Assembly (NCBI GenBank): GCA_035390125.1
Contig: DAOOTD010000002.1
Span: forward strand, 105,908 to 169,907
Source of the DNA: Candidatus Moraniibacteriota bacterium
GTDB taxonomy: Bacteria; Patescibacteriota; Minisyncoccia; Moranbacterales; GWC2-37-73
Direction: 5' to 3'
Length of the DNA: 64,000 nucleotides
A program made the translations under genes and the position numbers. Of the stretch, positions 6,314 through 50,361 are shown one piece after another (positions within the stretch are counted from its first letter, which is position 1; every line of letters starts with the position of its first letter). The notes beneath the pieces are model-generated. The model was given only the letters and a program-made list of their open reading frames with translations. It did not search any database and was not told the origin of the DNA.

Positions 6314-7762
6314 ATGGAAATAATAAAAAAATACAAAAAAAATAAAATGAAAATAGTAATGGCTTTTCTTTCTTTTGCTATGATACCATTTTTTTCCGGC
6401 TGCGGGAGTTCTTCGTCAGCCGGATATCTAGTTCCACTTGAAATATGGGGACCACTCGATGATTCATTGGTATATAGTGATATTGTAGACCAATATAAAA
6501 AAATAAATCCATATGCCGGTGAAATAAAATATAAAAAATTTAGCCAAGATACCTATAGAGACGAACTTATTGATGCACTTGCCAGCGGGCAAGGCCCCGA
6601 TATATTCATGATAAACAACTCATGGTTTCCGTATTTTGAGAATAAAACATACCCTGCGCCAGCGCATCTTGTTAGTGAAATTGATGTGCAAAACAATTTT
6701 CCCGATGTCGTTTCCTCGGATTTTGTAAGTAACAAGAAAGTATATGCAGTTCCGCTAAGCATAGATTCTCTGCAGATGTATTATAATAAGGATATGTTTA
6801 ATGCAGCAGGTATTTCTTATCCGCCTAGAACTTGGGATGAATTTAAAGAAGATGTTCGTATTCTTGTATCAATAGACAATAGCGGAAACATAGTCAGATC
6901 GGGAGCGGCAATTGGAACCGCTAAGAATGTAAACAGATTTTCAGATATTTTCAGTATGTTGCTATTACAGAATGGGGTCAAAATGCCCATGAAAAATGGT
7001 GATGCAATAAATTTTGATGAAGGAATAGTTGGGCCTGATGGAAAAGTTATAAAAGCAGGAGAAAAATCACTAGAAATGTATACACAATTTGCAAGAATAA
7101 ATAATCCTGACGGTACAACAAATCCTTTTTATACATGGAATTCACAGCAGGATAATTCGATAGAAGCATTCGCTTCTGGATCAACAGCCATGATGCTTAA
7201 CTACTCATGGCAGAATGACGGAATCAAGAATAAAAATTCCAAATTGAACTACTCGATAGCTCCTGTTCCGCAGGTAGATCCAAACAAGCCCATTACAATA
7301 GCAAATTACTGGGGATATGCAGTTTCTTTGAATAAAATACCTACCAATACATCTAGAAATAGTGCGCAAAAAACAGCAGTTGTTTCTAATGATGTGCGCG
7401 CTCATGAAGCATGGCAATTCTTGAAATTTTTGACTCTAAAAAATTCAGGTAAAGTTACGCTCTATAATGCAAACACAAAAAACAGCAAAGACTTCGCAGT
7501 AAATTTTGATCCAGCAAATAATTATCTGGAGAGAACTAAAAAACCTGCCGCGCGTCGTGATATAATTGAATCACAAAAAGCAGATGCGTTGCTTGGAACT
7601 TTTGCAACCGGAAACCTTATAGCAAAAAATTGGTACAAAAAAGACGCAAATGCTGTAGAATCGGTTTTTTTGGAGATGATAAATTCAGTTAACAGCGGCA
7701 AGGCTCTGGATGAAAGTTTATCCATAGCGAAGAATAGAATAAATCAAATGCCAATCAATTAA
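6314..7762 (+). CDS. Extracellular solute-binding lipoprotein (ABC transporter substrate-binding protein, family 1-like)
   Basis: 482 aa; lipoprotein signal (…FFSGCGSSS), size and aromatic-rich periplasmic binding-protein-like sequence. Confidence 0.65.
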   Translation: MEIIKKYKKNKMKIVMAFLSFAMIPFFSGCGSSSSAGYLVPLEIWGPLDDSLVYSDIVDQYKKINPYAGEIKYKKFSQDTYRDELIDALASGQGPDIFMINNSWFPYFENKTYPAPAHLVSEIDVQNNFPDVVSSDFVSNKKVYAVPLSIDSLQMYYNKDMFNAAGISYPPRTWDEFKEDVRILVSIDNSGNIVRSGAAIGTAKNVNRFSDIFSMLLLQNGVKMPMKNGDAINFDEGIVGPDGKVIKAGEKSLEMYTQFARINNPDGTTNPFYTWNSQQDNSIEAFASGSTAMMLNYSWQNDGIKNKNSKLNYSIAPVPQVDPNKPITIANYWGYAVSLNKIPTNTSRNSAQKTAVVSNDVRAHEAWQFLKFLTLKNSGKVTLYNANTKNSKDFAVNFDPANNYLERTKKPAARRDIIESQKADALLGTFATGNLIAKNWYKKDANAVESVFLEMINSVNSGKALDESLSIAKNRINQMPIN

Positions 7763-7767
7763 TTTTT

Positions 7768-8211
7768 ATGATCAGAAATAAAACAAAAACTATGGGTAAA
7801 ATATTATTTATTTGCATAACTTTTGTTTTTGCACTTTTTCTTTTGTTTTCACCTGTTGCACATGCAGCTATTATTACTTGCGGAGCAACCTCAGATGACA
7901 TGTGCACTTTGTGTGATATGGTTGCAGGATTCAATACTATTATCCAGTATCTAATGAAAATTTCAATCGGTGTTGCGCTGCTGGCCATATCCATAGGAGG
8001 GATTTTGTATGTTGTTTCTGCCGGTGAACCTGGAGCTGTTGAAACGGCAAAAAAAGCAATCAAAAACGGAATCATCGGATTTGTTATTGTTTTTTCAGCC
8101 TTTATTATAATCGGTACAGTGATAAGTTATTTAGGAGTACAGGAAGGAATGGGAATACGTTCAGGAGTAACCTGGGGGACATTTGACTGTACAGCAGCAG
8201 GTGTTCGATAG
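7768..8211 (+). CDS. VirB2/TrbC-like T4SS pilin-family protein (CPR-type pilin)
   Basis: Signal peptide (…SPVAHA), Cys-containing mature N-terminus, then TM helix – VSAGEPGAVETAKKAIKNG – TM helix. Same architecture as the paralogs at 8264, 24506, 24852, 25323 and 25730. Confidence 0.55.
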   Translation: MIRNKTKTMGKILFICITFVFALFLLFSPVAHAAIITCGATSDDMCTLCDMVAGFNTIIQYLMKISIGVALLAISIGGILYVVSAGEPGAVETAKKAIKNGIIGFVIVFSAFIIIGTVISYLGVQEGMGIRSGVTWGTFDCTAAGVR

Positions 8212-8263: not shown

Positions 8264-8896
8264 ATGATAAAATTTAAAAAAAATAAACTATTTTTAATGG
8301 CCGTTTTTGTTTTTTTGGCAATGATTTTTTTAAACCCCGTTAACGTATTTGCAGAAGATGCGGTAGTGAACTTTACTAACCCTCTAGGAGATATTACTAC
8401 TCTAGAAGGACTTGTATCTAATTTACTGTCAGCCGTTCAAAAAATAATAGTCTCATTGGCTTTGGTTTTTATTGTGGTGGGTGCGATAATGGTCCTTGTT
8501 TCAGCGGGAAGTCCGGAAACTGTGGAAAAAGGGAAAAAAGCTATTACTATGGCAATAGTAGGTCTCACAATTGGAATTGCAGCCCCATCGATATTAAAAG
8601 AAATCGCGAATGCTGTCGGTTGGAATTGTCCTGAAGGAGCTACAGATTGTGGAACTCTTACTGATGCACTTAATTTTTCCGATATTGCACTAAATGTTCT
8701 TAGTTTTCTTTTAGGTATAGCGGGAATACTAGCCATGATAATGCTGGTCATTGGAGGTATCATGTATTTGACTTCTGCTGGAGATGAAGAAAGAGTAGAG
8801 CAGGGCAAGAAAACATTCAAGTATTCCGTAATCGGAATCATAGTCATTATGAGTTCCATGATAATAGTAAGACAAATTGCTAATCTTTTTTTATAA
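8264..8896 (+). CDS. Tandem double-domain VirB2/TrbC-like pilin
   Basis: Signal peptide (MIKFKKNKLFLMAVFVFLAMIFLNPVNVFA), then two consecutive pilin units (…VSAGSPETVEKGKKAITMAIVG… and …LTSAGDEERVEQGKKTFKYSVIG…). The ORF track begins at an upstream TTG (8183) overlapping the previous gene; the ATG at 8264 is preferred. Confidence 0.55.
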   Translation: MIKFKKNKLFLMAVFVFLAMIFLNPVNVFAEDAVVNFTNPLGDITTLEGLVSNLLSAVQKIIVSLALVFIVVGAIMVLVSAGSPETVEKGKKAITMAIVGLTIGIAAPSILKEIANAVGWNCPEGATDCGTLTDALNFSDIALNVLSFLLGIAGILAMIMLVIGGIMYLTSAGDEERVEQGKKTFKYSVIGIIVIMSSMIIVRQIANLFL

Positions 8897-8934: not shown

Positions 8935-9387
8935 ATGCTTATAAATGTTCCACAATATATAGATGTCGAAGATAAAATTGCAGGTCCGCTCACAGCTAAG
9001 CAGCTGGGGTGGGTTATAGGGCTAGGCATTACTCTTTTGGTAATGTGGAATATGTTGCCTAAGGTTTTGTTTTTTATTATAGGCATACCACTGTCCATTG
9101 CATTTTTAGCCTTTGCTTTTTACAAGCCATATGGTCAGCCACTGGGTAATTTTGTCATTTTTGGGATACTATATTTTTTCCGTCCAAAAATATATTTCTG
9201 GCAAAGAACTCCTCAGAAAAATATTCCCAGCAAGCAAAAAACAAAAACTGAAGAGTCCCGTCCGCCAGAAAAAAAACTTGATACTGAATCAATAATGGAT
9301 TTAGCAAGGGTCATGGACAGCGGTGGTTCTGAACGCAATGAAAGGATAGAAGAACTTTTAAAAAACGTTCCAATTAAAAAGAAATAA
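8935..9387 (+). CDS. PrgI/VirB3-like small conjugation membrane protein
   Basis: 150 aa; N-terminal VPQYIDVEDKIAGPLTAKQ motif then two TM helices and a K/E-rich tail. Directly upstream of the VirB4-family ATPase, as PrgI precedes PrgJ in Gram-positive T4SS. Confidence 0.45.
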   Translation: MLINVPQYIDVEDKIAGPLTAKQLGWVIGLGITLLVMWNMLPKVLFFIIGIPLSIAFLAFAFYKPYGQPLGNFVIFGILYFFRPKIYFWQRTPQKNIPSKQKTKTEESRPPEKKLDTESIMDLARVMDSGGSERNERIEELLKNVPIKKK

Positions 9388-9397
9388 CAAAAAAACC

Positions 9398-10087
9398 ATG
9401 GAATTATTGCACTCAAAAAATCTAACCAAAGGAACTTCCGGAGGAGGAAGTACCCAAAAATATGTCGACGTTGAAGAAGTCCGTGATGGGGTAGTTATAC
9501 TGAAAGATGGATCTATGCGCTCAGTACTTTTGGTTTCTTCAATTAATTTTGACTTAAAAGCTACAGAAGAACAAGATTCTATTATTAATCAATATCAAAA
9601 CTTTCTTAATTCACTAGATTTTCCAATTCAAATAGTGATAAGTTCGCGTAAACTGAATATTGCTCCTTATTTGGAATATCTTAAAAAAAAGGAAACACAA
9701 CTGACTAATGAATTGCTGATTTTACAGCTGGAAGAATATCGTAACTTCATAAAAAGCCTTACCGATGTTTCAAGTATAATGTCTAAATTCTTTTATGTGG
9801 TGGTGCCTTTCTACCCAGTTGAAAATGTTAAAACAAGTGTTTTTGACAGATTTTTCGGAGCTGCAAATACCCAGATGTCTGCTATGCGGAGAAGAGAACT
9901 TTTTGAAACTTACAAAAATCAGCTTTGGCAAAGAATAGAACATGTCAGTTCTGGTTTAAGCAGTACTGGCGTAAAAGCTGTTCCGCTTAAAACTGAAGAG
10001 CTTATAGAACTTTTGTATAATTCATATAATGCTACGACACATAATAATGCAATAATAAGAGATGTAGACAAGATTGAACTCAAATAA
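9398..10087 (+). CDS. VirB4/TraC-family ATPase, N-terminal domain (separate ORF)
   Basis: 229 aa; sequence (…VDVEEVRDGVVILKDGSMRSVLLVSSINFDLKATEEQDSIINQYQNFLNSL…) resembles the N-terminal domain of Gram-positive VirB4 homologues (TcpF/PrgJ type). Ends 72 nt before the ATPase ORF in a different frame. Confidence 0.5.
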   Translation: MELLHSKNLTKGTSGGGSTQKYVDVEEVRDGVVILKDGSMRSVLLVSSINFDLKATEEQDSIINQYQNFLNSLDFPIQIVISSRKLNIAPYLEYLKKKETQLTNELLILQLEEYRNFIKSLTDVSSIMSKFFYVVVPFYPVENVKTSVFDRFFGAANTQMSAMRRRELFETYKNQLWQRIEHVSSGLSSTGVKAVPLKTEELIELLYNSYNATTHNNAIIRDVDKIELK

Positions 10088-10158: not shown

Positions 10159-11982
10159 ATGCTTGGAATAAACAAAAAAAATGACAAAAAACAAACTGTA
10201 AAAAGGGATCCGATTTTAGAAAGTGAGGAATTATATCAGCGTGGTGTTGCAACTATAAAAGATCTTATCGCCCCTTCTGCAATGAAGGTAAGTTCAAATT
10301 ACTTGCAAATAGGCGAAACGTTTGCCAGAACCGTTTTTGTTGTTGCCTATCCTAGATATTTGCATACAAACTGGTTTTCTCCGATTATAAACATTGATTT
10401 TTCCATGGATACTGCGATGTTTATACATCCTATTGATACAGTTGAAATATTAAAAACCCTCAGGAAAACATCAACCCAAGTGCAATCGCAGATTCACATG
10501 GAAGAACAGTCGGGAAAAATCCGAAATCCAATTTTGGAAACAGCCATTGAAGATATAGAAGATTTGCGCGATAAGCTCCAGCAAGGAACTGAAAAATTTT
10601 TCCGCTTCGGGCTCTACATGACTTTATATGCAAATAATTTGGAAGAACTTGAAAAAATACATTTGCAAATAGAAGCACTTCTCGAGGCGCAAATGGTTTA
10701 CATCAAGCCAGCGGTGTTAAAAGCTGAACAAGGTTTTTCCTCTACTTTGCCATTGGGAAATGATGAAATAGATATTGCTAATAATCTCAATACAGCACCA
10801 CTTTCTACGACATTTCCTTTTGTATCTTCAGATCTTTCATCTAATGAGGGTATTCTTTATGGGATTAATCGACACAATAACAGCCTTATTCTTTTTGACA
10901 GATTCCAAATGGAAAATGCCAATATGGTAGTTTTTTCTAAATCTGGCGGAGGGAAAAGCTATACTGTGAAACTCGAAATATTCCGTTCGCTGATGGTTGG
11001 AACCAATGTTGTTGTCATTGATCCAGAAAATGAGTACAAATATTTGTGTGAAACAGTAGGGGGAACTTTCATAAAACTTTCACTTAATTCTCCATATCAT
11101 TTGAATCCATTCGATCTTCCTAAAATTGGCGATGAAGAAGATCCTGAAGATGTTCTTAGGAGCAACATAGCCAGTCTTATAGGACTGCTTCATCTTATGC
11201 TTGGCAATGTAACTCCCGAAGAAGATTCAATTCTGGATATAGCTATTCGTGAAACATATGCGATGCGTGATATTACTGCCCGAAGCAATTTTAAGGCTCT
11301 TAATTCATCTTCTTTTCCGACCATGTCGGACCTTTATGCTGTTATTCGAAATTCAGAAGGCGGAGAATCAATAGCAAAAAGATTGGAAAAATACACAGAG
11401 GGTATTTTTGCTGGGGTGCTTAATCATACAACAAATGTACAGGTTGATAATCAAATGGTTGTCTTTAATATACGCGATCTTGAAGAACAGCTTAGGCCCA
11501 TTGCCATGTATACAGTCTTGCAGTTTATCTGGAATGAAATGCGGTCTTCACTTAAAAAAAGAATTGTAGTTGTGGATGAAGCTTGGGTTATGATGCAAAA
11601 TGATGATGCAGCATCTTTTTTATTTGGTATTGCAAAGCGTTGCAGAAAATATTATACAGGCTTAACAACAATAACTCAGGACATAGCAGATTTTATGACC
11701 TCGCGCTATGGAAAGCCGGTAGTAACTAATTCGTCATTGCAGCTGCTATTGCGTCAGTCTCCGGCAGCTATAGAAACAATTTCTGACACCTTTTTTCTAA
11801 CTGATCAGGAAAAGTTTCTCTTATTGGAAAGTGGGGTTGGAGAAGGAATTCTTTTTGCGGGAGCAAAGCATGTTGCAATAAAAGTTATTGCTTCATATCC
11901 TGAAGATCAAATCATAACATCTGATCCGCGCCAATTGATTGAAATTGAACAAGCCAAAAAAGAATTGGAAGAAGATGAATAA
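10159..11982 (+). CDS. VirB4/TraC/TrbE-family type IV secretion ATPase (ATPase-domain ORF)
   Basis: 607 aa; Walker A FSKSGGGKSY, Walker B VVVDEAW, overall CagE/TrbE/VirB4 domain order. Confidence 0.8.
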   Translation: MLGINKKNDKKQTVKRDPILESEELYQRGVATIKDLIAPSAMKVSSNYLQIGETFARTVFVVAYPRYLHTNWFSPIINIDFSMDTAMFIHPIDTVEILKTLRKTSTQVQSQIHMEEQSGKIRNPILETAIEDIEDLRDKLQQGTEKFFRFGLYMTLYANNLEELEKIHLQIEALLEAQMVYIKPAVLKAEQGFSSTLPLGNDEIDIANNLNTAPLSTTFPFVSSDLSSNEGILYGINRHNNSLILFDRFQMENANMVVFSKSGGGKSYTVKLEIFRSLMVGTNVVVIDPENEYKYLCETVGGTFIKLSLNSPYHLNPFDLPKIGDEEDPEDVLRSNIASLIGLLHLMLGNVTPEEDSILDIAIRETYAMRDITARSNFKALNSSSFPTMSDLYAVIRNSEGGESIAKRLEKYTEGIFAGVLNHTTNVQVDNQMVVFNIRDLEEQLRPIAMYTVLQFIWNEMRSSLKKRIVVVDEAWVMMQNDDAASFLFGIAKRCRKYYTGLTTITQDIADFMTSRYGKPVVTNSSLQLLLRQSPAAIETISDTFFLTDQEKFLLLESGVGEGILFAGAKHVAIKVIASYPEDQIITSDPRQLIEIEQAKKELEEDE

Positions 11983-12609: not shown

Positions 12610-14136
12610 ATGTCTTCTAAAATATATTCTGCCGCAACTATAGGTCTGGACGGAGAAATTGTAGAAGTTGAAGTTGATATTCTAGGATCCGGCCTGCACA
12701 ATTTTTCAATCGTTGGTCTCCCGGATATTGCAATCAAGGAGTCGCGTGATCGTGTTTCGAGTGCTATAAAAAATAGCGGATTTAAGCCACCACATCAGTG
12801 CGGTCGCATTACGGTGAATCTAGCTCCGGCAGACTTGCCAAAGGCCAGCCCTATTTATGATCTTCCTATCGCTATGGGATTTTTGCTTGCGACCAAACAA
12901 TTGCAATTTGATTTTAATGGCAGGATGATTGTAGGAGAACTTTCTCTTGACGGGCGCATACGTCCTATACAGGGAACTTTACCTATAGCTCTCTTGGCAA
13001 AAGAAAAGGGGTTTAATGAATTATATGTTCCATTAGAAAATGCAGCTGAAGCCAGTGTAGTTAAGGGAATAAATATTGTACCTGTAGATACTCTTTATTC
13101 TTTGGCTGATCATTTTTCTGGCAATAGAAAAATTGATTATTTCCCATCATTAGACGGGGATGTCCTATTTTCAACAGCAGATTATGAAATAGATATGGCT
13201 CATATTAAAGGTCAACAACATGCCAAGCGTGCTCTGGAAATTGCAGCAGCTGGTGGGCACAATGTTATTTTAAACGGACCTCCAGGATCAGGAAAGACTT
13301 TATTGGCTAAGGCTATTCCTACTATTCTCCCCCAGTTAACATTGGAAGAAGCATTGGAAATAACAAAAATATTTTCAGTTTCCGGAAAACTTAGGAAAGG
13401 ACAACCTCTAGTTACTTCAAGGCCATACAGAAATCCACATCATAGTGCCAGTAGTGTTTCTTTGATTGGTGGGGGGAGTTATCCAAAGCCTGGAGAAATA
13501 AGCTTAGCGCACAGGGGAGTTTTGTTTTTGGATGAGTTTGCTGAGTTTCCTAAAAGTGTTTTAGAGAATTTGCGCCAGCCACTTGAGGATGGTATGATAA
13601 CAATCTCAAGAGCCAAAGGATCTTTATATTTTCCAGCCCGGTTTATTTTGGTGGCCGCTATGAATCCCTGTTTTTGCGGGAACGCTACTGATCCGGAAAA
13701 AATATGCACATGTACGCCAGCACAGATTTCCCGGTATAAGCAAAAAATTTCTGGACCAATTATGGACCGCATTGATCTGCACATTGAAGTGCCACGTTTA
13801 AGTTTTGACAAGCTTCAAGAAGGAATAAGTGAAGAAAAAAGCGAGCAGATACGTGCCAGAGTGGAAGCAGCCAGAAAAATACAAGCTAAAAGATTTGAAA
13901 ATTTGTCGGTAATTTCTAACAGCGAAATGTCTTCTGATCAAATAAGACAATTTTGTCCTTTAGACGAAGAGTGCAAACAGCTTTTAAGAAATGCTGTATC
14001 AGCTCTAAAGCTTAGTGCCCGAGCTTATCACCGTATAATAAAAATCGCGCGTACTATTGCAGATCTTTCAAATAGTGAAAATATTCAGCCGGCACATATT
14101 GCCGAAGCCATTCAATACAGATTCAAAATGGAATGA
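12610..14136 (+). CDS. comM: YifB/ComM-family Mg-chelatase-like AAA+ ATPase
   Basis: 508 aa; N-terminal Lon-like domain (MSSKIYSAATIGLDGEIVEVEVDI), Walker A GPPGSGKT, Walker B LFLDEF, C-terminal ChlI/MoxR-like region. Confidence 0.85.
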   Translation: MSSKIYSAATIGLDGEIVEVEVDILGSGLHNFSIVGLPDIAIKESRDRVSSAIKNSGFKPPHQCGRITVNLAPADLPKASPIYDLPIAMGFLLATKQLQFDFNGRMIVGELSLDGRIRPIQGTLPIALLAKEKGFNELYVPLENAAEASVVKGINIVPVDTLYSLADHFSGNRKIDYFPSLDGDVLFSTADYEIDMAHIKGQQHAKRALEIAAAGGHNVILNGPPGSGKTLLAKAIPTILPQLTLEEALEITKIFSVSGKLRKGQPLVTSRPYRNPHHSASSVSLIGGGSYPKPGEISLAHRGVLFLDEFAEFPKSVLENLRQPLEDGMITISRAKGSLYFPARFILVAAMNPCFCGNATDPEKICTCTPAQISRYKQKISGPIMDRIDLHIEVPRLSFDKLQEGISEEKSEQIRARVEAARKIQAKRFENLSVISNSEMSSDQIRQFCPLDEECKQLLRNAVSALKLSARAYHRIIKIARTIADLSNSENIQPAHIAEAIQYRFKME

Positions 14137-15089
14137 TAAGAATTTCAAAAAAACTAAAATACATCTTTTTTTTAACTGGACTGGCAATCCTTTTTTTCTT
14201 TATATTCAATAAAGATAAAAATGATATTGCTATAAACTTTAATTCTGAAAAAAAGAAAATTGAATTGACTGATAGCAATATCACTTTTGAATTAATGTCT
14301 GCGGCCAAAACTGTAGAAGATTTTATGAACGAGCAAAAAATAGTCCTGGAAGAAAATGATTTAATTGTGCCTGATAAAAATAAAGAAATTTTTTCTGGTA
14401 CTCATATAATCATCAAACGAGCAAAAAACATAACAATTAAAGAAGCGGATAAAAAAACTAAAACGCATACTCTTTTGGATACTATCGAGCAAGCTGTTTG
14501 GGAGAATAAAGAAATAACTTTGTCCGATGATGATATTACGAATCCATCAAGGCGAGTATTGGTCAAAGAAGAAATGACAATTATTGTTACACATGTTGTC
14601 ATAAAAGAAGAAATAAAAAAGCAGGATATCGATTTCAAAACAATTTCTAATGAAGATGATAAATTAGGTTGGCGCGTTAAAAAAGTCACCCAAAAAGGAA
14701 TAAAAGGCACGCGTGAAATAAAATATAAAGTAGTTTATCATGACAATAAGGAAATATCGCGCAAAATTCTGGAAAGCAATGTTACAAAAGAACCAATTGA
14801 AGAAATTGTTACGCAAGGAACATATATGAAATTAGGCAAGGCTAATAAAGGACAGGGTACCTGGTATGCCTGGAAAGGGGGACTTTTTGCTGCCAGCACG
14901 ACTCTTCCGCGCGGCGCATATGCCAAGGTGACCAATGCGGAAAATGGCAAATCGGTCGTTGTCCAAATCAATGATTATGGCCCGCAAGGTAAAGGACGCA
15001 TTATTGATTTGGACAAAGTTGCTTTTGAAAAAATAGCTTCATTAGGTGCGGGAGTTATTGGAGTCAAAGTGGAGCAAGTACTCAATTAG
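14133..15089 (+). CDS. RlpA-like double-psi beta-barrel (DPBB) domain protein, secreted/anchored
   Basis: 318 aa; N-terminal TM/signal anchor. C-terminal GTWYAWKGGLFAAS…VVVQINDYGPQGKGRIIDLDKVAFEKI matches the RlpA/expansin-like DPBB fold motif. Start overlaps the comM stop (ATGGAATGA). Confidence 0.55.
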   Translation: MIRISKKLKYIFFLTGLAILFFFIFNKDKNDIAINFNSEKKKIELTDSNITFELMSAAKTVEDFMNEQKIVLEENDLIVPDKNKEIFSGTHIIIKRAKNITIKEADKKTKTHTLLDTIEQAVWENKEITLSDDDITNPSRRVLVKEEMTIIVTHVVIKEEIKKQDIDFKTISNEDDKLGWRVKKVTQKGIKGTREIKYKVVYHDNKEISRKILESNVTKEPIEEIVTQGTYMKLGKANKGQGTWYAWKGGLFAASTTLPRGAYAKVTNAENGKSVVVQINDYGPQGKGRIIDLDKVAFEKIASLGAGVIGVKVEQVLN

Positions 15090-15133
15090 TTTATAAAGTT
15101 ATAAAGTTCATAAGGTTCATAAGGTTCATAAAG
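15089..15133. repeat. Short tandem repeat, about 5 copies of GTT(C)ATAA(A/G)
   Basis: gtttataaa gttataaa gttcataag gttcataag gttcataaa read directly in the sequence, ending at the ksgA start. Confidence 0.7.
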
Positions 15134-15135
15134 TT

Positions 15136-15969
15136 ATGGAAATCAAAGCGAAAAAATCTTTAGGACAGAATTTTTTGAAAGACGAGGCAATTTTGCAACG
15201 GATTATTGAAAGTGCGAAACTTTCTGCTGATGATGTTGTCATTGAAATCGGGCCGGGGCAAGGAGTGCTGACGGAACTGCTGACTGAGGTTGCCAAAAAA
15301 GTCATGGCGATTGAATTGGATGACCGACTGGTTGAAATGTTAAATAACAAGTTGCGTAACAAAGAAAATATTGAAATTATCCATGATGATATACTAAAAA
15401 TAAATCTTCCAGAGCTTATTTTTAACAAGCTGAAGAAGCTGAAAGCTAAGGAAGTTAAATATAAAGTTGTCGCTAATATTCCATATTACATTACTGCTCC
15501 AATTATTAAATTATTTTTAGAAACCAAATTTCCACCGAGTGAAATGATTCTGATGGTGCAGAAAGAAGTAGCGGAAAGAATCTGTGCCAAGGCAGGAAAA
15601 ATGAGCATTTTGGCAGTGTCGGTGCAATACTATGCTCAGCCGGAATATTTATTCACTGTGTCGAAAGAATCTTTTGAGCCGATGCCGAAAGTGGATAGTG
15701 CAGTAATTAGAATCATAAGAAACAAAAAACCTGCTTCGCCGGCAGGCAGACGAGAAACAAGAAACAAGCAGGACGTTAAAAAATTTTTTAGAATTGTGCG
15801 GGCGGGATTTTCAGCCAAAAGAAAAACTTTAGCTAATAATCTTTCTAATGGATTTCAAATAGACAAAAAAACTTCTGAAGAAAAATTAATCGCGCTTGGT
15901 TTTTCGAAAAATACTCGCGCTCAGGAACTGACAGTGGAAGATTGGAGGAAAATAGAGAATATTTTATAA
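15136..15969 (+). CDS. rsmA: 16S rRNA (adenine1518/1519-N6)-dimethyltransferase
   Basis: 277 aa; N-terminal KKSLGQNFL motif, SAM-binding VIEIGPGQG, KsgA/Dim1 family. Confidence 0.9.
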   Translation: MEIKAKKSLGQNFLKDEAILQRIIESAKLSADDVVIEIGPGQGVLTELLTEVAKKVMAIELDDRLVEMLNNKLRNKENIEIIHDDILKINLPELIFNKLKKLKAKEVKYKVVANIPYYITAPIIKLFLETKFPPSEMILMVQKEVAERICAKAGKMSILAVSVQYYAQPEYLFTVSKESFEPMPKVDSAVIRIIRNKKPASPAGRRETRNKQDVKKFFRIVRAGFSAKRKTLANNLSNGFQIDKKTSEEKLIALGFSKNTRAQELTVEDWRKIENIL

Positions 15970-19265: not shown

Positions 19266-19505
19266 CAGTTAAAAATTAAGGTTGCGGGTGATGAGTAATG
19301 ACATGAGGCGGTTTTTTATCATTATTCTCTAAGCCTGTCAACCAACCGAAAGGACTTATTTATTAGCAAAAAATCCATTTTTTCTTATATATACGAATCA
19401 ATCAGAAAAATTGACCTCAAGGGCTTAAACACTAAAATTCATCTTAAACAACGCTCAATAGCAAACTTCATAAAGGAGCACAGAACCATAAAACTGCTCC
19501 ACGTT

Positions 19506-20567
19506 TTGCGTAATTATTCAGCCTTTGCAGTGGTGGTATCAAGTTCACTTCTTGTTTCAGCAACAAATGTTGCCTCAGGCAATAATTATGGCAAACTTCT
19601 TTTTGGTTATTGGGATGCATCAGCTGAGACCATTCCAGCGGTGAATGGCAGTAAAATAAGCGGACAGGTAAATAAAAAAAATGATTTAGCTCTTGTTCCC
19701 CTTTCCAAATCAAACACATCCATTGAACCAGAAAAAAAAGAAGATGATTCAAACAGGAGCATTATAAAGGATGACGGAATAATGCTGGTTTCTGGCGGAG
19801 CCAATCCGATGAAAGATCCTGAAGAAGAGGGCGGGGTTAAAATGTATATTGTACAATCCGGTGACACTCTCGGTTCAATCGCTGAAAAAAATGGAGTTTC
19901 GGTTAATACTATTTTGTGGGCAAATGACATCAGTAATGCCGACTCCATAATGCCAGGAGATACTATGTTCATTCTGCCTGTTTCAGGAGTAAAATATGTC
20001 ATAAAATCGGGAGACAATCTTGATGCTATCGCTAATAAATTTAAAGCAGAAAAAGATAAAATAATAGCCTTTAATGATTTGCCAGCGAATGGAGAAATAA
20101 AAGTGGGAGAAGAAATAATTATTCCTGATGGCCAGGGAGAAGCTCCTAAGCCAGCTGTTCCAAGCAGCAGCCAATCCTTAATCAATAAGAGGCAATATGC
20201 GAATACTGCAGGAGGAGTTCCCCAGATTACGGGCAGAATTCTTTCAGGGAAAGCCGGCACTGGTCATAGATTTCCATATGGATATTGCACTTGGTTTGTC
20301 GCCCAGAAACGTTATGTTCCCTGGGGTGGCAACGCTGGAACATGGCTGTACCATGCAAAAGCTGCCGGGTATGCAACCGGAAAAACTCCACGACCAGGAG
20401 CTATCGTAGTGACTACCGAGAACAGATATTATGGTCATGTGGCTTATGTTGAAAAAGTCAGCGGAAACAGTTTTACTGTTTCTGAAATGAATTATGTCGG
20501 TTATGCAAAAACAAGTCGCAGAACAATCTCAACTTCAAGCAGAGTTATTAAAGGTTTCATTTATTAA
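19506..20567 (+). CDS. Secreted peptidoglycan hydrolase with two LysM domains and a C-terminal CHAP amidase/peptidase domain
   Basis: Signal peptide; LysM repeats (YIVQSGDTLGSIAEKNGVS…, YVIKSGDNLDAIANKF…); CHAP Cys (GYCTWFVAQKR) and His (GHVAYVEKV). The ORF-track start is a TTG at 19506; the true start is uncertain. Confidence 0.75.
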   Translation: MRNYSAFAVVVSSSLLVSATNVASGNNYGKLLFGYWDASAETIPAVNGSKISGQVNKKNDLALVPLSKSNTSIEPEKKEDDSNRSIIKDDGIMLVSGGANPMKDPEEEGGVKMYIVQSGDTLGSIAEKNGVSVNTILWANDISNADSIMPGDTMFILPVSGVKYVIKSGDNLDAIANKFKAEKDKIIAFNDLPANGEIKVGEEIIIPDGQGEAPKPAVPSSSQSLINKRQYANTAGGVPQITGRILSGKAGTGHRFPYGYCTWFVAQKRYVPWGGNAGTWLYHAKAAGYATGKTPRPGAIVVTTENRYYGHVAYVEKVSGNSFTVSEMNYVGYAKTSRRTISTSSRVIKGFIY

Positions 20568-22753: not shown

Positions 22754-23152
22754 ATGGATATAGATGCTATAAAAGACAGACTGACGAATAAATTTTCTTT
22801 GCCGCACGTTTCTTTTGAACAGGACACGATAGAACAAAAGAAATTGCTTGCGCTGTATGTGCTTGCTTCTGATAGCCAGCTTGTGTTGTTGCCGACTTAT
22901 TTTGCTTTTTCTTATCCCGCTTTCATTGCCGGTCTTAATGAAAAACATATTGAATATATAGCCAAAAACGCTCCAGCTGATTACAAAAGAGAGCTTATGA
23001 AAGCAATCAGCCAGAGCTACGTGCTGAAAGAAGTTTTTGAAATTGCAAAATCCATGGATGAAGATTTGGGCAGAAGCAGCACAACTAATCAGGACAGAAT
23101 AAAAAATGTCATGCGGTATATCAGGGATAACAGAGTAATTTTTGAATTCTAA
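22754..23152 (+). CDS. Hypothetical protein (T4SS-cluster associated)
   Basis: 132 aa soluble ORF, ATG start, protein-like composition. The overlapping minus ORF is not protein-like. Confidence 0.4.
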   Translation: MDIDAIKDRLTNKFSLPHVSFEQDTIEQKKLLALYVLASDSQLVLLPTYFAFSYPAFIAGLNEKHIEYIAKNAPADYKRELMKAISQSYVLKEVFEIAKSMDEDLGRSSTTNQDRIKNVMRYIRDNRVIFEF

Positions 23153-23162
23153 AAAACAAAAA

Positions 23163-24500
23163 ATGACAGTCATATATACAAATCAAAACAACATCTCTCC
23201 CAAAAATAATGCCGGCCAGTATGATTTGAATGAGGAAAGGAAAATAGCGGATGAAATAACCGAAGAGATAAAAGAAGACCTTATTGAAAAATGGAGAACA
23301 ACATATGAAAATGCTGAAATTTTTCCGTATAAAATCAGTGCCATGCATTCGGATGTCCTTGATTTTCTCTTGGGATTTGATCTGATTTCCATTTATGACA
23401 ATATAGCCAGACAGGCAGGACTTGATATGAAAGGCAGAAGCATTCTTCCTCAAGTTGTGTGGAGCGTTGCGCAAAGCAAAAAATGGAGTGAGGCAGAACA
23501 GGAATTGCAGAAAAGAATATTGCTTCCCCCGAATACTAAAGCTTTGACTTTGCAGCTTCTTGAACAAAACATAATAAGCAAACTTATCATGCTTTCGGCT
23601 AAGCCTTCGGCCAAAAAAAGTCCTGCCCAGAGCGAAACAGAAAGAAGAATCCAGTTGCCGCTTTCAGAAGCATTGCAAAAATACAAGGAACTGGGAGAAC
23701 AAAACATTACTATCAATCAGCTGAAACTCAAATATTTTCCTACGCCTGTCAGGCCATCTATAAGAAACTGGATTACTGATTTCCATGACAACATGGGAAG
23801 CGGAAAGCATGGTACAGTCGATAGGGCGAATTATTTATTTCACAGCGAAAATGGGAAAAAACTCACGCCCGTAGAAAGGCAGAAACTTTCATTGATTCTT
23901 AAATCACTGGACGAAAAAACTCCTTTAATCATCGATACGGAACTGCAACGGATTATTTTCACAGAAGGCAAGGTTTTTCCAAATGAACAAACTGAAAATT
24001 TGCCAAGCCGGAGCGGACAAACAGCAGAAATAAATATGTATTCAAAAAATGAAGAGTCTAATAGCTTTGCTGCTATAGAAGATAATTATCTGCAAGTTCC
24101 GAAATATCAGCCGCCCCAAGAAAATAAAAAATATTCTCCCAACTTCAAGGACTTGACGGAGCCGAGCGTTTTGCCGGAACAAAAAATAGTAAATTCAAAT
24201 CAGGATGATTCAAGAGGTTCGGTTGTGGATGAAGGCAAGGTAAGTTTTTCTTCTCCGCAAAAGTTTTCAAATGAAAAAGAAAATGAAAAACCAATAAGGC
24301 CTGCTAGTACGATTAGCCAGCAAAAAACATTTATGACCCCAACGCCACAAGCAGATAGAGAAAAAACATTTGGAAATAAAGCATCTGAAATAAAACCGTG
24401 GGTCATCAAGCCGTCTGCTTATTTTAATGAAGAAAAAACGGATGAAGAACAAACTTTACAGGCAAAAATAAGAGGAAACATTGTTGATTTAAAAGGCTGA
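23163..24500 (+). CDS. Hypothetical protein with low-complexity Q/K/E/P-rich C-terminal half
   Basis: Long ORF on the operon strand. The ORF-track start is a TTG at 23142; the ATG at 23163 is preferred. No recognisable motif. Confidence 0.4.
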   Translation: MTVIYTNQNNISPKNNAGQYDLNEERKIADEITEEIKEDLIEKWRTTYENAEIFPYKISAMHSDVLDFLLGFDLISIYDNIARQAGLDMKGRSILPQVVWSVAQSKKWSEAEQELQKRILLPPNTKALTLQLLEQNIISKLIMLSAKPSAKKSPAQSETERRIQLPLSEALQKYKELGEQNITINQLKLKYFPTPVRPSIRNWITDFHDNMGSGKHGTVDRANYLFHSENGKKLTPVERQKLSLILKSLDEKTPLIIDTELQRIIFTEGKVFPNEQTENLPSRSGQTAEINMYSKNEESNSFAAIEDNYLQVPKYQPPQENKKYSPNFKDLTEPSVLPEQKIVNSNQDDSRGSVVDEGKVSFSSPQKFSNEKENEKPIRPASTISQQKTFMTPTPQADREKTFGNKASEIKPWVIKPSAYFNEEKTDEEQTLQAKIRGNIVDLKG

Positions 24501-24505
24501 AAATT

Positions 24506-24778
24506 ATGGATATCATAAATACAGCATATGCAGGAGTTATTACAGACGCTCCTACAGTAAGAGAAATTGGAGCGAATGTTCTGTCTTTTTTATTGTCAAT
24601 AATGGGAATAATTGCTATAATATCATTAGTTGTCTCTGGAATAATGTATTTTTTTTCAGCCGGCGACTATAAAAGAATAGAGATTGCAAAAAAATCCACC
24701 AAATACTCAATACTGGGAATCGTCATTGCCTTAGGAGGAATGATAATAATCAGATTTATCGGCAGTTTTTTAAATTAA
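24506..24778 (+). CDS. VirB2/TrbC-like pilin-family protein (paralog 3)
   Basis: 90 aa; TM – FSAGDYKRIEIAKKSTKYSILG – TM; same motif as the other paralogs. Confidence 0.55.
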   Translation: MDIINTAYAGVITDAPTVREIGANVLSFLLSIMGIIAIISLVVSGIMYFFSAGDYKRIEIAKKSTKYSILGIVIALGGMIIIRFIGSFLN

Positions 24779-24851
24779 TCAGGATTCAAACGAATAAAGG
24801 AAAGTTTAAAATAAATAAAAAAATTTATAAACTAGAATGGGAGGTGTTACT

Positions 24852-25199
24852 ATGCTGAATAAAGTTAAAAAAATTTTTTATGCAATCGCCAGTTTAATCG
24901 CAATTGCTCCATCAGCAGTTTTGGCTATCAATGTGCCTGATGCAGATCTTCCGGATGCAACCCTTACAGATATAATCACTGGTTTTATGAACTGGCTTTT
25001 AGCTATCGTAGGTATTTTAGCAGTTATAGGATTCGTTATCGCTGGAATTATATATCTTACAGCTGCTGGAGATGAAGACCAGATCGCTCGTGGCAAGAAA
25101 ACCATGATTTACTCGTTGGTAGGTATTATCGTGGCTCTTATGGGAGTCATAATAATCAAAGCGGTGCAGTCAATGTTGGGCGGTGGCAGCAGTTTCTAA
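24852..25199 (+). CDS. VirB2/TrbC-like pilin-family protein (paralog 4)
   Basis: GGAGGT Shine-Dalgarno 7 nt upstream of the ATG at 24852 (ORF-track start 24837). Signal peptide …APSAVLA; TM – LTAAGDEDQIARGKKTMIYSLVG – TM. Confidence 0.6.
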   Translation: MLNKVKKIFYAIASLIAIAPSAVLAINVPDADLPDATLTDIITGFMNWLLAIVGILAVIGFVIAGIIYLTAAGDEDQIARGKKTMIYSLVGIIVALMGVIIIKAVQSMLGGGSSF

Positions 25200-25226
25200 A
25201 TTTTTTGTATGCATATAAAAGCAGAA

Positions 25227-25252
25227 GGCGATTCCTCGGAATCGTCTTTTTT
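25227..25252 (+). terminator. Rho-independent terminator
   Basis: GACGATTCC/GGAATCGTC stem (1 mismatch) followed by TTTTTT. Confidence 0.5.
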
Positions 25253-25322
25253 GCAAAGTGTACATAATTTAAGGATTATGATATAATTAAATTATAATAA
25301 TAATTTTTTATACTTTAAAAAA

Positions 25323-25685
25323 ATGAATATCAAAAAGAAAACATTGGGTACTATTATTTCAACAATTCTACTTTTTCCAATGTCTGTTCTGGCCGCAGAT
25401 GGAGAAGGATGGCAAATAGGAGATGATTATGGTCTTCCTACGGGAACCATAAGCGGAATTCTCGAGGGTCTTTTGAATTGGCTTTTGGGAATTTTTGCAG
25501 TCTTAGGAGTTATAGGCTTTATAATTTCAGGAATTATGTATTTAGTGTCCGCAGGTGATGAAGACGGAATTGCACGAGCTAAAAAAGCTATGATTTACTC
25601 GCTGATAGGAATTATTGTCGGCCTTTCCGGTATTATCCTGATAGCAGCTGTGGATAGCTTTTTAATGGGTAGCGGTACATTCTAA
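25323..25685 (+). CDS. VirB2/TrbC-like pilin-family protein (paralog 5)
   Basis: 120 aa; signal peptide …MSVLA; TM – VSAGDEDGIARAKKAMIYSLIG – TM; about 50 percent identical by eye to paralog 4. Confidence 0.6.
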   Translation: MNIKKKTLGTIISTILLFPMSVLAADGEGWQIGDDYGLPTGTISGILEGLLNWLLGIFAVLGVIGFIISGIMYLVSAGDEDGIARAKKAMIYSLIGIIVGLSGIILIAAVDSFLMGSGTF

Positions 25686-25729
25686 AATTCTTAATGACCT
25701 ATTTTTATCACCAATAATCTGCTAAAAAA

Positions 25730-26227
25730 ATGATCAAAACAAGAAAAAATATCTTTCTATTTTTTGTTGCAATATCTTTTGTAAGCTTGTTTTTTGTGAG
25801 TGTTGATATAACAAAAGCTGGGGATGCTGAATATGCTAGTTGTCTACTGGGTTGTTCTCCTACGGATACTGAGTGTACTCGTGCATGCAGAGCTCTTAGA
25901 GGAGATGGTGAAGGAGATTGCGGTGCAGGCTTTACACCTGTCGGCGGGGTTTGTTTCCCTGATGAAACAGGGTTGCCAGACTCTCAGGATATTCCGGGAA
26001 TTCTTTCCAGCGTATTAAAATGGCTATTGGGAATATTTTCAACCATTGCGCTCATCTCATTTGTGATATCCGGCGTGTTATATATTACTTCATCCGGCGA
26101 CACCGACCAGATCGAAAAGGCAAAACGCAATGCTTTGTATTCTATTTTAGGCGTTATCGTGGGTCTTTCTGGGTATATCATAATTGTGGCGATTCAGGCT
26201 GCTCTGGGAGGAAACAGTACGTTTTGA
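25730..26227 (+). CDS. VirB2/TrbC-like pilin-family protein with Cys-rich N-terminal extension (paralog 6)
   Basis: 165 aa; signal anchor, then an 8-Cys module (CLLGCSPTDTECTRACRALRGDGEGDCGAGFTPVGGVCF), then TM – TSSGDTDQIEKAKRNALYSILG – TM. Confidence 0.55.
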   Translation: MIKTRKNIFLFFVAISFVSLFFVSVDITKAGDAEYASCLLGCSPTDTECTRACRALRGDGEGDCGAGFTPVGGVCFPDETGLPDSQDIPGILSSVLKWLLGIFSTIALISFVISGVLYITSSGDTDQIEKAKRNALYSILGVIVGLSGYIIIVAIQAALGGNSTF

Positions 26228-47166: not shown

Positions 47167-47343
47167 AAATACTTAAAGGACTTTTTCCTGGTTAATGATT
47201 TTTTAATTGATAATAGATGTCTCTTGGATTAATCCTACTTGTGGTAGGTTTTTTATTATGATTATTTTTTGTAATTTTTGTCTATTTATAGTACAATTAC
47301 ACTAAACTTGAACGGAATAGGAATATTTAAACAAAAAATAATT

Positions 47344-50300: not shown

Positions 50301-50361
50301 TGGAATTTTAAAAGTTCTGGAAGGCGAAACAACTTTTGATGAAGTGGACAGGGTAGTATAG
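47344..50361 (+). CDS. Tandem-fused double GspE/PilB-family secretion ATPase (two complete ATPase units)
   Basis: Two successive units, each with a GspE N-terminal-like domain, Walker A (GPTGSGKTTTLY twice), Asp/His boxes, Walker B (…VGEIRDDETA… / …IGEIRDEETA…) and a CxxC…CxxC zinc module. ORF-track start 47278 is a TTG; the ATG at 47344 is preferred. Confidence 0.8.
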   Translation: MVKVSDKQLIRDKEKETQTGKLLKKMSGQSEEEIASQLAAECGLAYVDLNIFPVSSDDMRSISEEESRRYKMIVFQKAGKEHRIGVVNPTSQETISFIEKLKNENGWLIHLYVISNSSFNKIWKRYAAIPFLENLESMQISLSGKDLDDFDKEFGNLLELKKRINEIPTSQIISIIMAGSVKMKASDIHFEPGEQEVRMRFRIDGELQDIASFPLDTYHFILSRIKMMGKMKINVRDIAQDGHFSVDIENGKINVRTNIIPGNHGESIVMRILSQADIMLGIEDLGLRGLAYERLQKEVSKPHGMILTTGPTGSGKTTTLYALVNKLNTAGVKIITIEDPIEYEVKNISQTQVEKGRSYTFAEGLRAIVRQDPDVILVGEIRDDETADIAVNAALTGHLVLSTLHTNNAPASIPRFVELGIKPNLISPSVNAFIAQRLVRKLCPHCREEYAPARETIDSIKKILSIISPKAKVEIPKTVEKLYRPVGCSKCHNIGFKGRIGIFEILTITEPIEKLILEMGSEREITQAALEDGMITMAQDGILKAIEGLTSMEEVWHATGQTEFLEEIYTKLMEQSLSRSVEIHEEDLKLVSENMTSIESLGKFLQNSNQKEVANYIFASSLLLNVGDIHIEPEEKVVKIRYRMDGILQTIAEIPINEYPSLLGNIKFLSGFSSEIRGGVMDSRFTIALEKPYKNITETKVDVRVSIILGGYGETVVMRLLNKSSVALDLEKLGIRKQNMEKIIEETRKPNGIFLNTGPTGSGKTTTLYSIMKILNKPEVKIISVEDPIEYQLEGILQTSVNDNEGYTFGTALRALLRQNPDIMMIGEIRDEETANIAVQAALTGHSILSTLHTNNAAGSIQRLINMGVRSDDLATAVNALMAQRLVRKLCDCKTKRQMTEEEKNKVKKILQNVSDKSGVAIPPIESVYEPKGCDKCNGVGYKGRTTISEVFVIDRDIEELIMQSASATQLQDKAVENGMITMEQDGILKVLEGETTFDEVDRVV

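Follow-up and report, generated by a model that had tools for sequence, protein, structure and literature searches.

Patescibacteria, which live attached to host cells, account for a large part of bacterial diversity. What one of them does with six divergent copies of a small, two-helix membrane protein is the question raised by the locus described here, which lies in a 64,000-nucleotide stretch of DNA (from now on, the window; ~36% GC, thus low-GC, and densely packed with genes) of a Candidatus Moraniibacteriota bacterium (assembly GCA_035390125.1, contig DAOOTD010000002.1, positions 105,908 to 169,907). An initial annotation, made from the letters of this DNA, had recognised six genes for proteins sharing a signal peptide, a transmembrane (TM) helix, a charged loop, and a second TM helix, and had proposed that they encode major and minor pilins or tip adhesins, or that they serve the antigenic diversification of a surface filament. 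Judged from their sequences, the six genes are mutually homologous VirB2/TrbC-like type IV secretion pilins. They probably constitute the pilin set of a chromosomal, monoderm-type type IV secretion system (T4SS), which would build a T4SS-associated filament or conduit with specialised pilin roles.

Genes of this kind have been described before. A search of 3,035 Patescibacteria genomes with the Pfam families PF18895 and PF04956 found VirB2-like pilins in 1,948 assemblies and 441 arrays of 2-11 genes in 383 assemblies (Quinonero-Coronel et al. 2025, PMC12102498), with a mean within-array identity of 25% and a maximum of 54%. By analogy to the VirB2 paralogues of Bartonella and Anaplasma, these arrays were read as a possible adaptation to different hosts, and the same work gives TrsD, PrgI, VirB4, and VirB6 as the T4SS repertoire of Patescibacteria and KsgA as a frequent neighbour. 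The cultivated Saccharibacterium Southlakia epibionticum carries six PF18895 pilins (SEML1_0014-0019), and pilin subunits were found to be essential in it (Wang et al. 2023, PMC10633639); in the part of the supplementary tables of that paper that is used here, SEML1_0014-0016 appear with PF18895 matches and SEML1_0019 as 'pilin', and SEML1_0014 and 0017-0019 are each scored as essential. A review considers a pilus-like conduit attractive but unproven (PMC12857230). The locus is of interest because the one Patescibacteria species tested cannot do without its T4SS and pilin array, and because it offers a clean comparative picture of ordered classes, a covalent two-unit pilin, and near-invariant cores against quickly changing, Cys-rich heads.

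Six Mutually Homologous Type IV Secretion Pilins

The six plus-strand open reading frames (ORFs) of one architecture were all present, each of them complete and with its own start codon, and all six products exceeded the curated Pfam gathering cut-off of PF18895 (T4SS_pilin), taken as the threshold of membership (26.6 bits, whole-protein score), with values from 29.9 to 85.8 bits. The tandem protein encoded at 8264-8896 was the only one that also passed the gathering cut-off of PF04956 (TrbC/VirB2), with 39.8 versus 27.9 bits. For pairwise comparison, the six proteins were split into seven mature units, and the resulting 21 BLASTP pairs were significant without exception (E 1e-11 to 5e-36, identity 24-58%). 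Two hydrophobic segments and the charged loop motif were detected by hydropathy in all six proteins, and the helices were predicted by AlphaFold2 (AF2) as well. In the multiple alignment of the units, the S/T-A/S-G-D/E ... K-K/R loop is aligned across units and set between the two hydrophobic helices, with three invariant non-hydrophobic positions in the loop region (G53, K62, and G71).

The T4SS context is close at hand, with the genes for PrgI, the TrsD-like protein, and VirB4 immediately downstream of 8264 and that for VirB6 1.8 kb upstream of 24506 (Table 1). The products of 7792-8211 and 25730-26227 are 100% identical to proteins named 'pilin' at NCBI from metagenome-assembled genomes of Candidatus Moranbacteria. 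Among NCBIfam models, the best match of all six was NF045849 (Mycoplasma integrative and conjugative element (ICE) pilin-like; E 2e-9 to 2e-4, 20.8-37 bits), whose equivalog cut-off of 40 bits was reached by none of them, so that they are relatives of this family and not members. When the 983 ORF segments obtained from all six frames of the window were searched with the unit profile, no seventh pilin copy appeared, and the best match after the six had an E of 0.46. Scans for promoters (18 sites vs 12.8 ± 3.6 in shuffled sequence) and terminators (21 vs 16.8 ± 4.0) gave no excess in either case.

Some details of the initial annotation had to be revised. The start of the first gene, placed at 7768, is more likely at 7792 (MGKILF), because the NCBI protein has 139 aa and similarity to a sister strain begins at MGKILF; for the start at 24852, a Shine-Dalgarno sequence (GGAGGTG) and the gene call of the sister strain gave support. 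A signal peptide, attributed to all six pilins, was found in five of them, but 24506 has only a leader of nine residues.

Pilin Classes and Gene Order across Moranbacteria

A survey of 50 species-representative loci, recovered with the tandem pilin as query, was used to compare classes and gene order, with the class assigned by best match; the bit-score margins were clear for A, B, and C and small between D/E and F. On these matches, the paralogs are of about five classes, A (7792), B (8264), C (24506), D/E (24852 and 25323), and F (25730), and are not recent copies. Two layouts recur in Moranbacteria-type genomes: a solute-binding protein (SBP) gene followed by A - Bx2 - PrgI - TrsD - VirB4, as in the window, and a single array A - C - D - F - Bx2 followed by NusA. 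One of these orders, A-C-D-F-Bx2 or A-Bx2-PrgI-TrsD-VirB4, was found in most of the 37 Moranbacteria-type species loci, and a few loci deviated from the class order (L021, L026, and L028). Genes 24852 and 25323, which had been taken for close duplicates, are indeed the closest paralogue pair, but they share only 58% identity in amino acids and 73.6% in DNA over 125 nt. Most related arrays hold a single D/E-class gene, and thus 25323 (class E) is probably a lineage-specific duplicate of class D.

The cysteines of these pilins are confined to exposed parts and come in even numbers. Class A has a head with three of them (CG...MCTLCD) and a tail with one (WGTFDC; W-G-x-F-D-C in homologues), and 21 homologues all keep these four (C30, C38, C41, and C133); the Cys cluster previously noticed in this protein therefore stands for three of the four Cys of the mature protein, the fourth being in the C-terminal tail and a fifth in the signal peptide. 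The head of class F holds six Cys (C38, 42, 49, 53, 64, and 75), instead of the eight counted initially, and is followed by a conserved neck, VGGVCFPDETGLPD, before the hairpin (C...G-V-C-F-P-x-x-T-G-L across orthologues). Between species, class F heads vary greatly, with 0 to 18 Cys in total per orthologue.

The minimal class C protein starts with MDIINTAYA/GVITDAP and has no Sec-type signal peptide. Orthologues of ~89-97 aa with the same short AxA-G[VS]IT[DN]AP N-terminus were found in 15 Moranbacteria loci (within L014-L043), their leaders being 9-13 residues long and ending in A-x-A. The closest paralogue unit of 24506 is the C-terminal unit of 8264 (53%). A Sec signal peptide would need more residues than this leader has.

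Constrained Cores and Fast-Evolving Exposed Parts

The pilins were compared with those of a sister strain (sample ERR7570002, loci L005 and L006), whose housekeeping proteins are 95-99% identical to those of the window, by Nei-Gojobori counts on this one strain pair and a pooled Fisher test on rounded counts. The hairpin cores were identical or nearly so, with changes and indels concentrated in the N-heads, the class A C-tail, and the signal peptides. Pooled nonsynonymous to synonymous differences amounted to 52.5:30.5 in exposed parts versus 10:81 in cores (p = 4e-13), and core omega was 0-0.04 in four of the five differing pilins and 0.15 in class C. The class D protein (24852) showed 100% amino acid identity to its orthologue, with 0 nonsynonymous and 12 synonymous differences, and class A, 85% identical, presented indels and substitutions only in its head and tail. 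As for class F, omega was 0.85 in the head, where all six Cys were retained, and there were zero nonsynonymous changes in the core. The antigenic diversification of the initial annotation holds in this narrow sense only, as exposed heads and tails change faster than cores between the sister strains, but not in the form of recombining cassettes (see below).

Also faster than neighbouring housekeeping genes was the divergence between the sister strains of two other proteins of the region, the VirB6-like protein (omega 0.20; 88.6% identity across residues 1-631, the last ~25 residues being unaligned) and the hydrophilic protein of 23142-24500, 90% identical (omega 0.21).

A Conserved Two-Unit Pilin and Its Multi-Unit Relatives

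As proposed in the initial annotation, the protein encoded at 8264-8896 (class B) contains two complete pilin units, matched by two Pfam stretches and by the unit HMM with i-E values of 8e-31 and 1e-37. A signal peptide precedes unit 1, which is joined to unit 2 by a linker of 21 residues that contains a Cys pair (C122 and C129); the protein has four TM helices, and its AF2 model (mean pLDDT 79) places helices at 47-79, 84-118, 138-169, and 175-209, that is, two consecutive hairpins. The fusion is conserved, with two units in 119 of the 120 class B homologues listed and a fragment as the remaining one. The flanks of the linker, which starts with G-W and ends with A-L-T-L-S-x-I-A, enclose 23 to 45 residues in homologues, with either no Cys or exactly two, the latter in 12 of 60 sequences.

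Concatenation of VirB2 units appears to be a wider phenomenon, seemingly undescribed. The unit profile matched 69,266 cluster representatives at E ≤ 1e-3, and 34 of the top 150 matches held at least three pilin units per polypeptide, up to a maximum of 17. The unit numbers seen in these other metagenomic proteins were 3, 4, 5, 6, 7, 8, and 17, with examples in P0183 (555 aa, 6 units), P0185 (820 aa, 8 units), P0186 and P0187 (7 units), and P0196 (1775 aa, 17 units). In Peregrinibacteria/Gracilibacteria loci, where ORFs were called with code 11 and Gracilibacteria may use code 25, multi-unit pilin genes were found in pairs (Table 1), two three-unit genes in L044 and L049, a three-unit and a two-unit gene in L047 and L050, and a one-unit and a three-unit gene in L046. 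These pairs are followed by a very large ORF with a single pilin unit, which exceeds 1,600 codons in L044, L046, and L049; in L047, L049, and L050 this ORF runs off the contig.

No description of multi-unit or fused VirB2-like pilins was found in the literature searched, whose coverage was incomplete, so that this is no proof of novelty. We can suggest, tentatively and with more doubt than conviction, that 8264-8896 is the smallest member of a class of "poly-pilins" with 2 to 17 VirB2-like hairpins per polypeptide. If such proteins entered a T4SS filament or channel, the result would be a conjugative-type pilus of covalently pre-linked protomers, with the neighbours of each subunit fixed, and the question would arise of how VirB4 pulls 4 to 34 TM helices from the membrane.

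Genes around the Pilin Arrays

Table 1. Position and assignment of the pilins, T4SS genes, and other features of the window, and of the multi-unit pilin loci of Peregrinibacteria/Gracilibacteria (numbered within each locus).
Feature	Position	Strand	Evidence and remarks
Solute-binding lipoprotein, ABC-type, orphan	6314..7762	+	Lipobox FFSGC; PF01547 SBP_bac_1, E 2.4e-28; directly upstream of the pilin array
Class A pilin	7792..8211	+	PF18895 37.6 bits; signal peptide, N-head, TM hairpin, C-tail; start initially placed at 7768
Class B tandem pilin	8264..8896	+	PF18895 85.8 bits, 2 stretches; PF04956 39.8 bits
PrgI/VirB3-like T4SS membrane protein	8935..9387	+	PF12666 PrgI 38.2 bits
TrsD-like protein, resembling the VirB4 N-terminal region	9398..10087	+	PF26593 TraC-like (precomputed annotation)
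VirB4-family T4SS ATPase	10159..11982	+	PF19044 P-loop_TraG 97 bits; also AAA_10, DUF87, CagE_TrbE_VirB
LysM-LysM-CHAP cell-wall hydrolase, candidate VirB1 analogue	19311..20567	+	PF01476 LysM x2, PF05257 CHAP
Extended VirB6/TrbL-like polytopic membrane protein, 653 aa	20750..22711	+	PF04610 TrbL 28.5 bits vs cut-off 25.9
132-aa protein	22754..23152	+	No Pfam/NCBIfam match; conserved in L005, syntenic with VirB6 and pilins in the sister strain
Hydrophilic protein, ~445-452 aa	23142..24500	+	No Pfam/NCBIfam match; immediately upstream of the four-pilin array
Class C minimal pilin, 90 aa	24506..24778	+	PF18895 29.9 bits; TrbC 20.1 bits, under cut-off
Class D pilin, 115 aa	24852..25199	+	PF18895 44.9 bits; signal peptide, short N-terminus, hairpin
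Class E pilin, 120 aa	25323..25685	+	PF18895 34.5 bits
Class F head-bearing pilin, 165 aa	25730..26227	+	PF18895 34.9 bits; signal peptide, 6-Cys head, neck, hairpin
PilB/GspE-like ATPase, 1,027 aa	47278..50361		Two T2SSE stretches, MshEN domain
Probable surface protein, 647 aa	53189..55132		Three lamin-tail (LTD) stretches, PKD domain
Multi-unit pilin locus L044	4716..11749
Multi-unit pilin locus L046	2..6456
Multi-unit pilin locus L047	3131..9277
Multi-unit pilin locus L049	4996..11961
Multi-unit pilin locus L050	1903..5996

The T4SS genes of the window are interspersed with and surrounded by housekeeping genes, encoding ComM/ChlI, G5-DPBB, KsgA, UvrD, a tyrosine recombinase, NusA, H+-PPase, and trigger factor. 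The VirB4 sequence was found to be identical on a 279-kb JGI metagenome contig, where the gene order is also identical. The TrsD-like protein matched NF041427 TrsD (E 7.5e-8) and VirB4_plasma (E 3.9e-11), both under the curated cut-offs. For the LysM-CHAP hydrolase, the longest listed ORF starts at 19506, and the sister-strain call (419 aa) aligns from 19311. A frameshift or readthrough fusing the 452-aa ORF of the hydrophilic protein to 24506 was considered and rejected, because the two lie in different frames and are also separate genes in the sister strain.

Directly upstream of the first pilin gene, a homologue of the solute-binding lipoprotein was found in ~23 of 50 related loci (L007-L013, L016, L017, L021, L022, L027, L028, L032, L035, L036, L040, L041, L045, L048, L051, L053, and L054), and in four more at ~2 kb upstream; loci with this arrangement include Falkowbacteria and Saccharibacteria. 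There is no permease or ATPase gene beside 6314-7762 in the window. The association between solute-binding proteins and pilins is not mentioned in PMC12102498 and was not found in the literature searched, of incomplete coverage. This lipoprotein might belong to the pilin system as a conserved accessory.

Comparison with the sister strain also revealed changes beside the T4SS genes. The ComM/ChlI-like gene (12610-14136) is absent from it (window 12610-15969 vs L006 11153-13517), and the G5-DPBB and KsgA proteins are 81-82% identical, versus 95-99% elsewhere in the region, which suggests local recombination or replacement in this stretch. Away from the T4SS genes and not adjacent to the pilins, the protein encoded at 47278-50361 looks like a secretion/pilus ATPase that has been duplicated or fused within one polypeptide.

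A Proposed Mechanism and the Alternatives to It

The mechanism that we propose for the six pilins starts from their family and T4SS context, the conservation of their classes, order, and two-unit fusion, the invariant Cys, and the fast evolution of the exposed parts, and takes membrane topology, pilus assembly, subunit roles, and disulfides from the biology of VirB2, TrbC, and TraA. Pilins would be inserted in a Sec-dependent way and then cleaved by signal peptidase, class C with its leader of 9-13 residues only. Each mature pilin would be a membrane hairpin with both termini outward and, following the positive-inside rule, the basic S-A-G-D...K-K loop in the cytoplasm, whereas tandem class B would run out-in-out-in-out, with the linker outside. 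The VirB4 ATPase, together with PrgI/VirB3, the TrsD-like protein, and VirB6, would pull out the hairpins and polymerise them, giving a T4SS-associated filament or conduit across the wall that would contact the host cell. In this polymer, the loop would line the lumen, leaving N-heads, C-tails, and the tandem linker on the outside. The minimal, highly constrained classes C and D/E would be the likeliest bulk subunits, Cys-stapled class A and class F, with its hypervariable, Cys-rich head, the likeliest minor, tip, or host-recognition subunits, and class B would provide two covalently linked protomers. The proposed topology fits the near-invariant cores and variable exposed parts and the restriction of Cys, in even numbers, to the latter. 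Major and minor pilins or tip adhesins, as suggested in the initial annotation, are thus compatible with the classes, their largely conserved order, and the existence of minimal and Cys-headed types; such roles are plausible but unproven.

Several points weigh against a filament built in this way. We know of no precedent for pulling a 4-TM tandem protein into a pilus, the literature outside this family not having been searched for one. Five of the six pilins stay under the PF04956 cut-off (24506 with 20.1 bits, the other four without a match at E ≤ 0.1). When the unit alignment was run as a profile against the PDB sequences, the matches were alphavirus E1 TM helices and comparable noise, with no solved VirB2 or TraA pilin among them, and fold searches with the AF2 models gave generic helical hairpins, the tandem-pilin model finding nothing in the PDB with Foldseek at E ≤ 1e-3, just F-BAR and 14-3-3 helical noise. 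As a helical hairpin is not discriminating, these searches cannot tie the models to solved pilins, and, because no PDB pilin matched, the tie to canonical pilins is through the Pfam profiles alone. The AF2 model of class A has a pLDDT of only ~50 in head and tail and allows no statement on Cys pairing; thus, its disulfide pattern is just putative. The rates come from a single strain pair, and relaxed constraint would account for the class F head omega of 0.85 no less than positive selection would, as a value below 1 is no proof of the latter. Finally, none of the T4SSs of Patescibacteria has yet been seen with a filament, and the literature itself calls the pilus hypothetical (PMC12857230).

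In the main alternative, the proteins would be VirB2-like but would form no extended pilus, staying in a membrane-embedded or wall-spanning T4SS ring or channel in which fused units would behave like fused c-ring subunits and pre-assemble part of the ring. We regard this as rather unlikely, while giving it real weight. Hairpin concatenation is covalent and conserved, with two units here and up to 17 elsewhere, and favours a channel insofar as it is hard to imagine such proteins pulled out of the membrane; monoderm T4SSs are generally without pili (PMC12102498), and a pilus has not yet been observed. However, the variable, Cys-rich, fast-evolving N-heads resemble exposed interaction surfaces, the tandem protein scores above the gathering threshold of the pilus-forming TrbC/VirB2 family, and published opinion leans to a pilus-like conduit (PMC12857230). 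A different use of the set, as cassettes for antigenic or phase variation with one expressed copy and the others acting as gene-conversion donors, like Neisseria pilE/pilS or Anaplasma msp2, could be expected from several divergent paralogues of one surface protein whose exposed regions differ between strains, and from the published likening to VirB2 paralogues of Bartonella and Anaplasma (PMC12102498). It seems very improbable to us, since direct-repeat and blastn searches for the recombination or gene-conversion tracts that the initial annotation had advised looking for found none within or between the two clusters, where the longest exact DNA match between clusters was 16 nt and only the weak D/E similarity mentioned above was seen. 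In addition, no silent or partial donor copies with shared tracts, of the pilE/pilS kind, were found, as every copy is complete, with its own start and, in five cases, its own signal peptide; there are clear class orthologues in largely conserved order across species, and homologous pilins of S. epibionticum were scored as essential (SEML1_0014 and 0017-0019, in the part of the tables cited above). Class conservation, the contrast between cores and exposed parts, and the lack of conversion tracts favour specialised roles, with host-facing variable heads, over cassette variation.

The two remaining readings are hardly tenable. Type IV pili (T4P) are common and functionally important in Patescibacteria, and the PilB-type (T2SSE) ATPase at 47278-50361 could be thought to assemble the six proteins as major and minor pilins of one of them. 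Nevertheless, the pilins adjoin homologues of VirB3, VirB4, and VirB6 and not the PilB-like gene, a second, C-terminal TM helix makes a hairpin that is not the T4P fold, and no type IV pilin family appeared among the Pfam matches of the six at E ≤ 0.1. The class III prepilin leader (G/F-T-L-I-E; searched as G/[FM]T[LI][IV]E) was absent from all six, and this, together with PF18895/PF04956 membership, means that the name of pilin holds in the sense of VirB2/TrbC-like type IV secretion and not in that of type IV pili. Just as implausible is that unrelated small membrane proteins were brought together by generic TM-hairpin composition, although hydrophobic helices inflate scores and the fold searches were non-specific: the curated Pfam thresholds were passed by all six, non-hydrophobic positions are conserved, and the unit profile, despite its many thousands of matches elsewhere, recognised nothing else among the ORF segments of the window. 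Pairwise homology, invariant positions, and profile specificity therefore make the shared motif of the initial annotation a real case of homology.

Comparison with Known Systems

The closest counterparts of the six pilins are the catalogued Patescibacteria arrays, with which they share PF18895, the neighbourhood of PrgI, TrsD, VirB4, and VirB6, including a nearby KsgA, and the low identity between paralogues (24-58% here vs the published mean of 25% and maximum of 54%); no relaxase or coupling protein was seen near the T4SS genes of the window either. Six pilin genes are also the number found in S. epibionticum ML1, which is, however, a member of Saccharimonadia, a class-level lineage different from the Moranbacteria of the window. 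Unlike in S. epibionticum and the catalogued arrays, the set is split here into two arrays ~15.6 kb apart, and its two-unit fusion and its Cys-stapled and Cys-rich-headed classes were not found described in those papers.

With VirB2 of Agrobacterium and TrbC of RP4, the pilins have in common the signal peptide, the hydrophobic two-helix hairpin with a short basic loop, the position beside VirB3 and VirB4 homologues, and, for the tandem protein, the match to PF04956. In contrast to those systems, the host is monoderm, no VirB5, VirB7, VirB9, or VirB10 homologue was present among the genes checked, and none of the solved pilin structures is matched in sequence by these pilins. Head-to-tail cyclisation is a feature of T-pilin and TrbC. 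In class A, the invariant Cys of the N-head (CG..CxxC) and C-tail (FxC) might form instead a putative disulfide staple, which may be, by analogy, an equivalent of that cyclisation; we put this forward as a possibility of limited likelihood.

The Mycoplasma ICE proteins Mbov_0395/MMCAP2_0565 (NF045849) resemble the window pilins over nearly the whole 80-position model and belong to a monoderm, MPF-FATA-type system, next to the VirB4 Mbov_0397, which is also matched, below the cut-off, by the TrsD-like protein of the window; the pilins themselves differ in scoring under the equivalog cut-off. These matches fit poorly with the published statement that VirB2 homologues are missing from monoderm T4SS classes. 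They hint, at the sequence level, at a monoderm system of the MPF-FATA type that may already possess a VirB2-like component, and they may bear on the origin of the Patescibacteria pilin.

Finally, the VirB2 paralogues of Bartonella and Anaplasma phagocytophilum are also divergent tandem copies in host-dependent bacteria, with proposed host-facing variation (PMC12102498), but those are diderm pathogens of eukaryotic cells; in the window, by contrast, the classes have clear cross-species orthologues and only the exposed heads vary. Since pilin arrays were already described in PMC12102498 and PMC10633639, the six-pilin set is a further example of a published phenomenon and nothing in it is categorically new; what it adds is the picture of classes and their order, a conserved fused pilin, and fast-evolving, Cys-rich heads.

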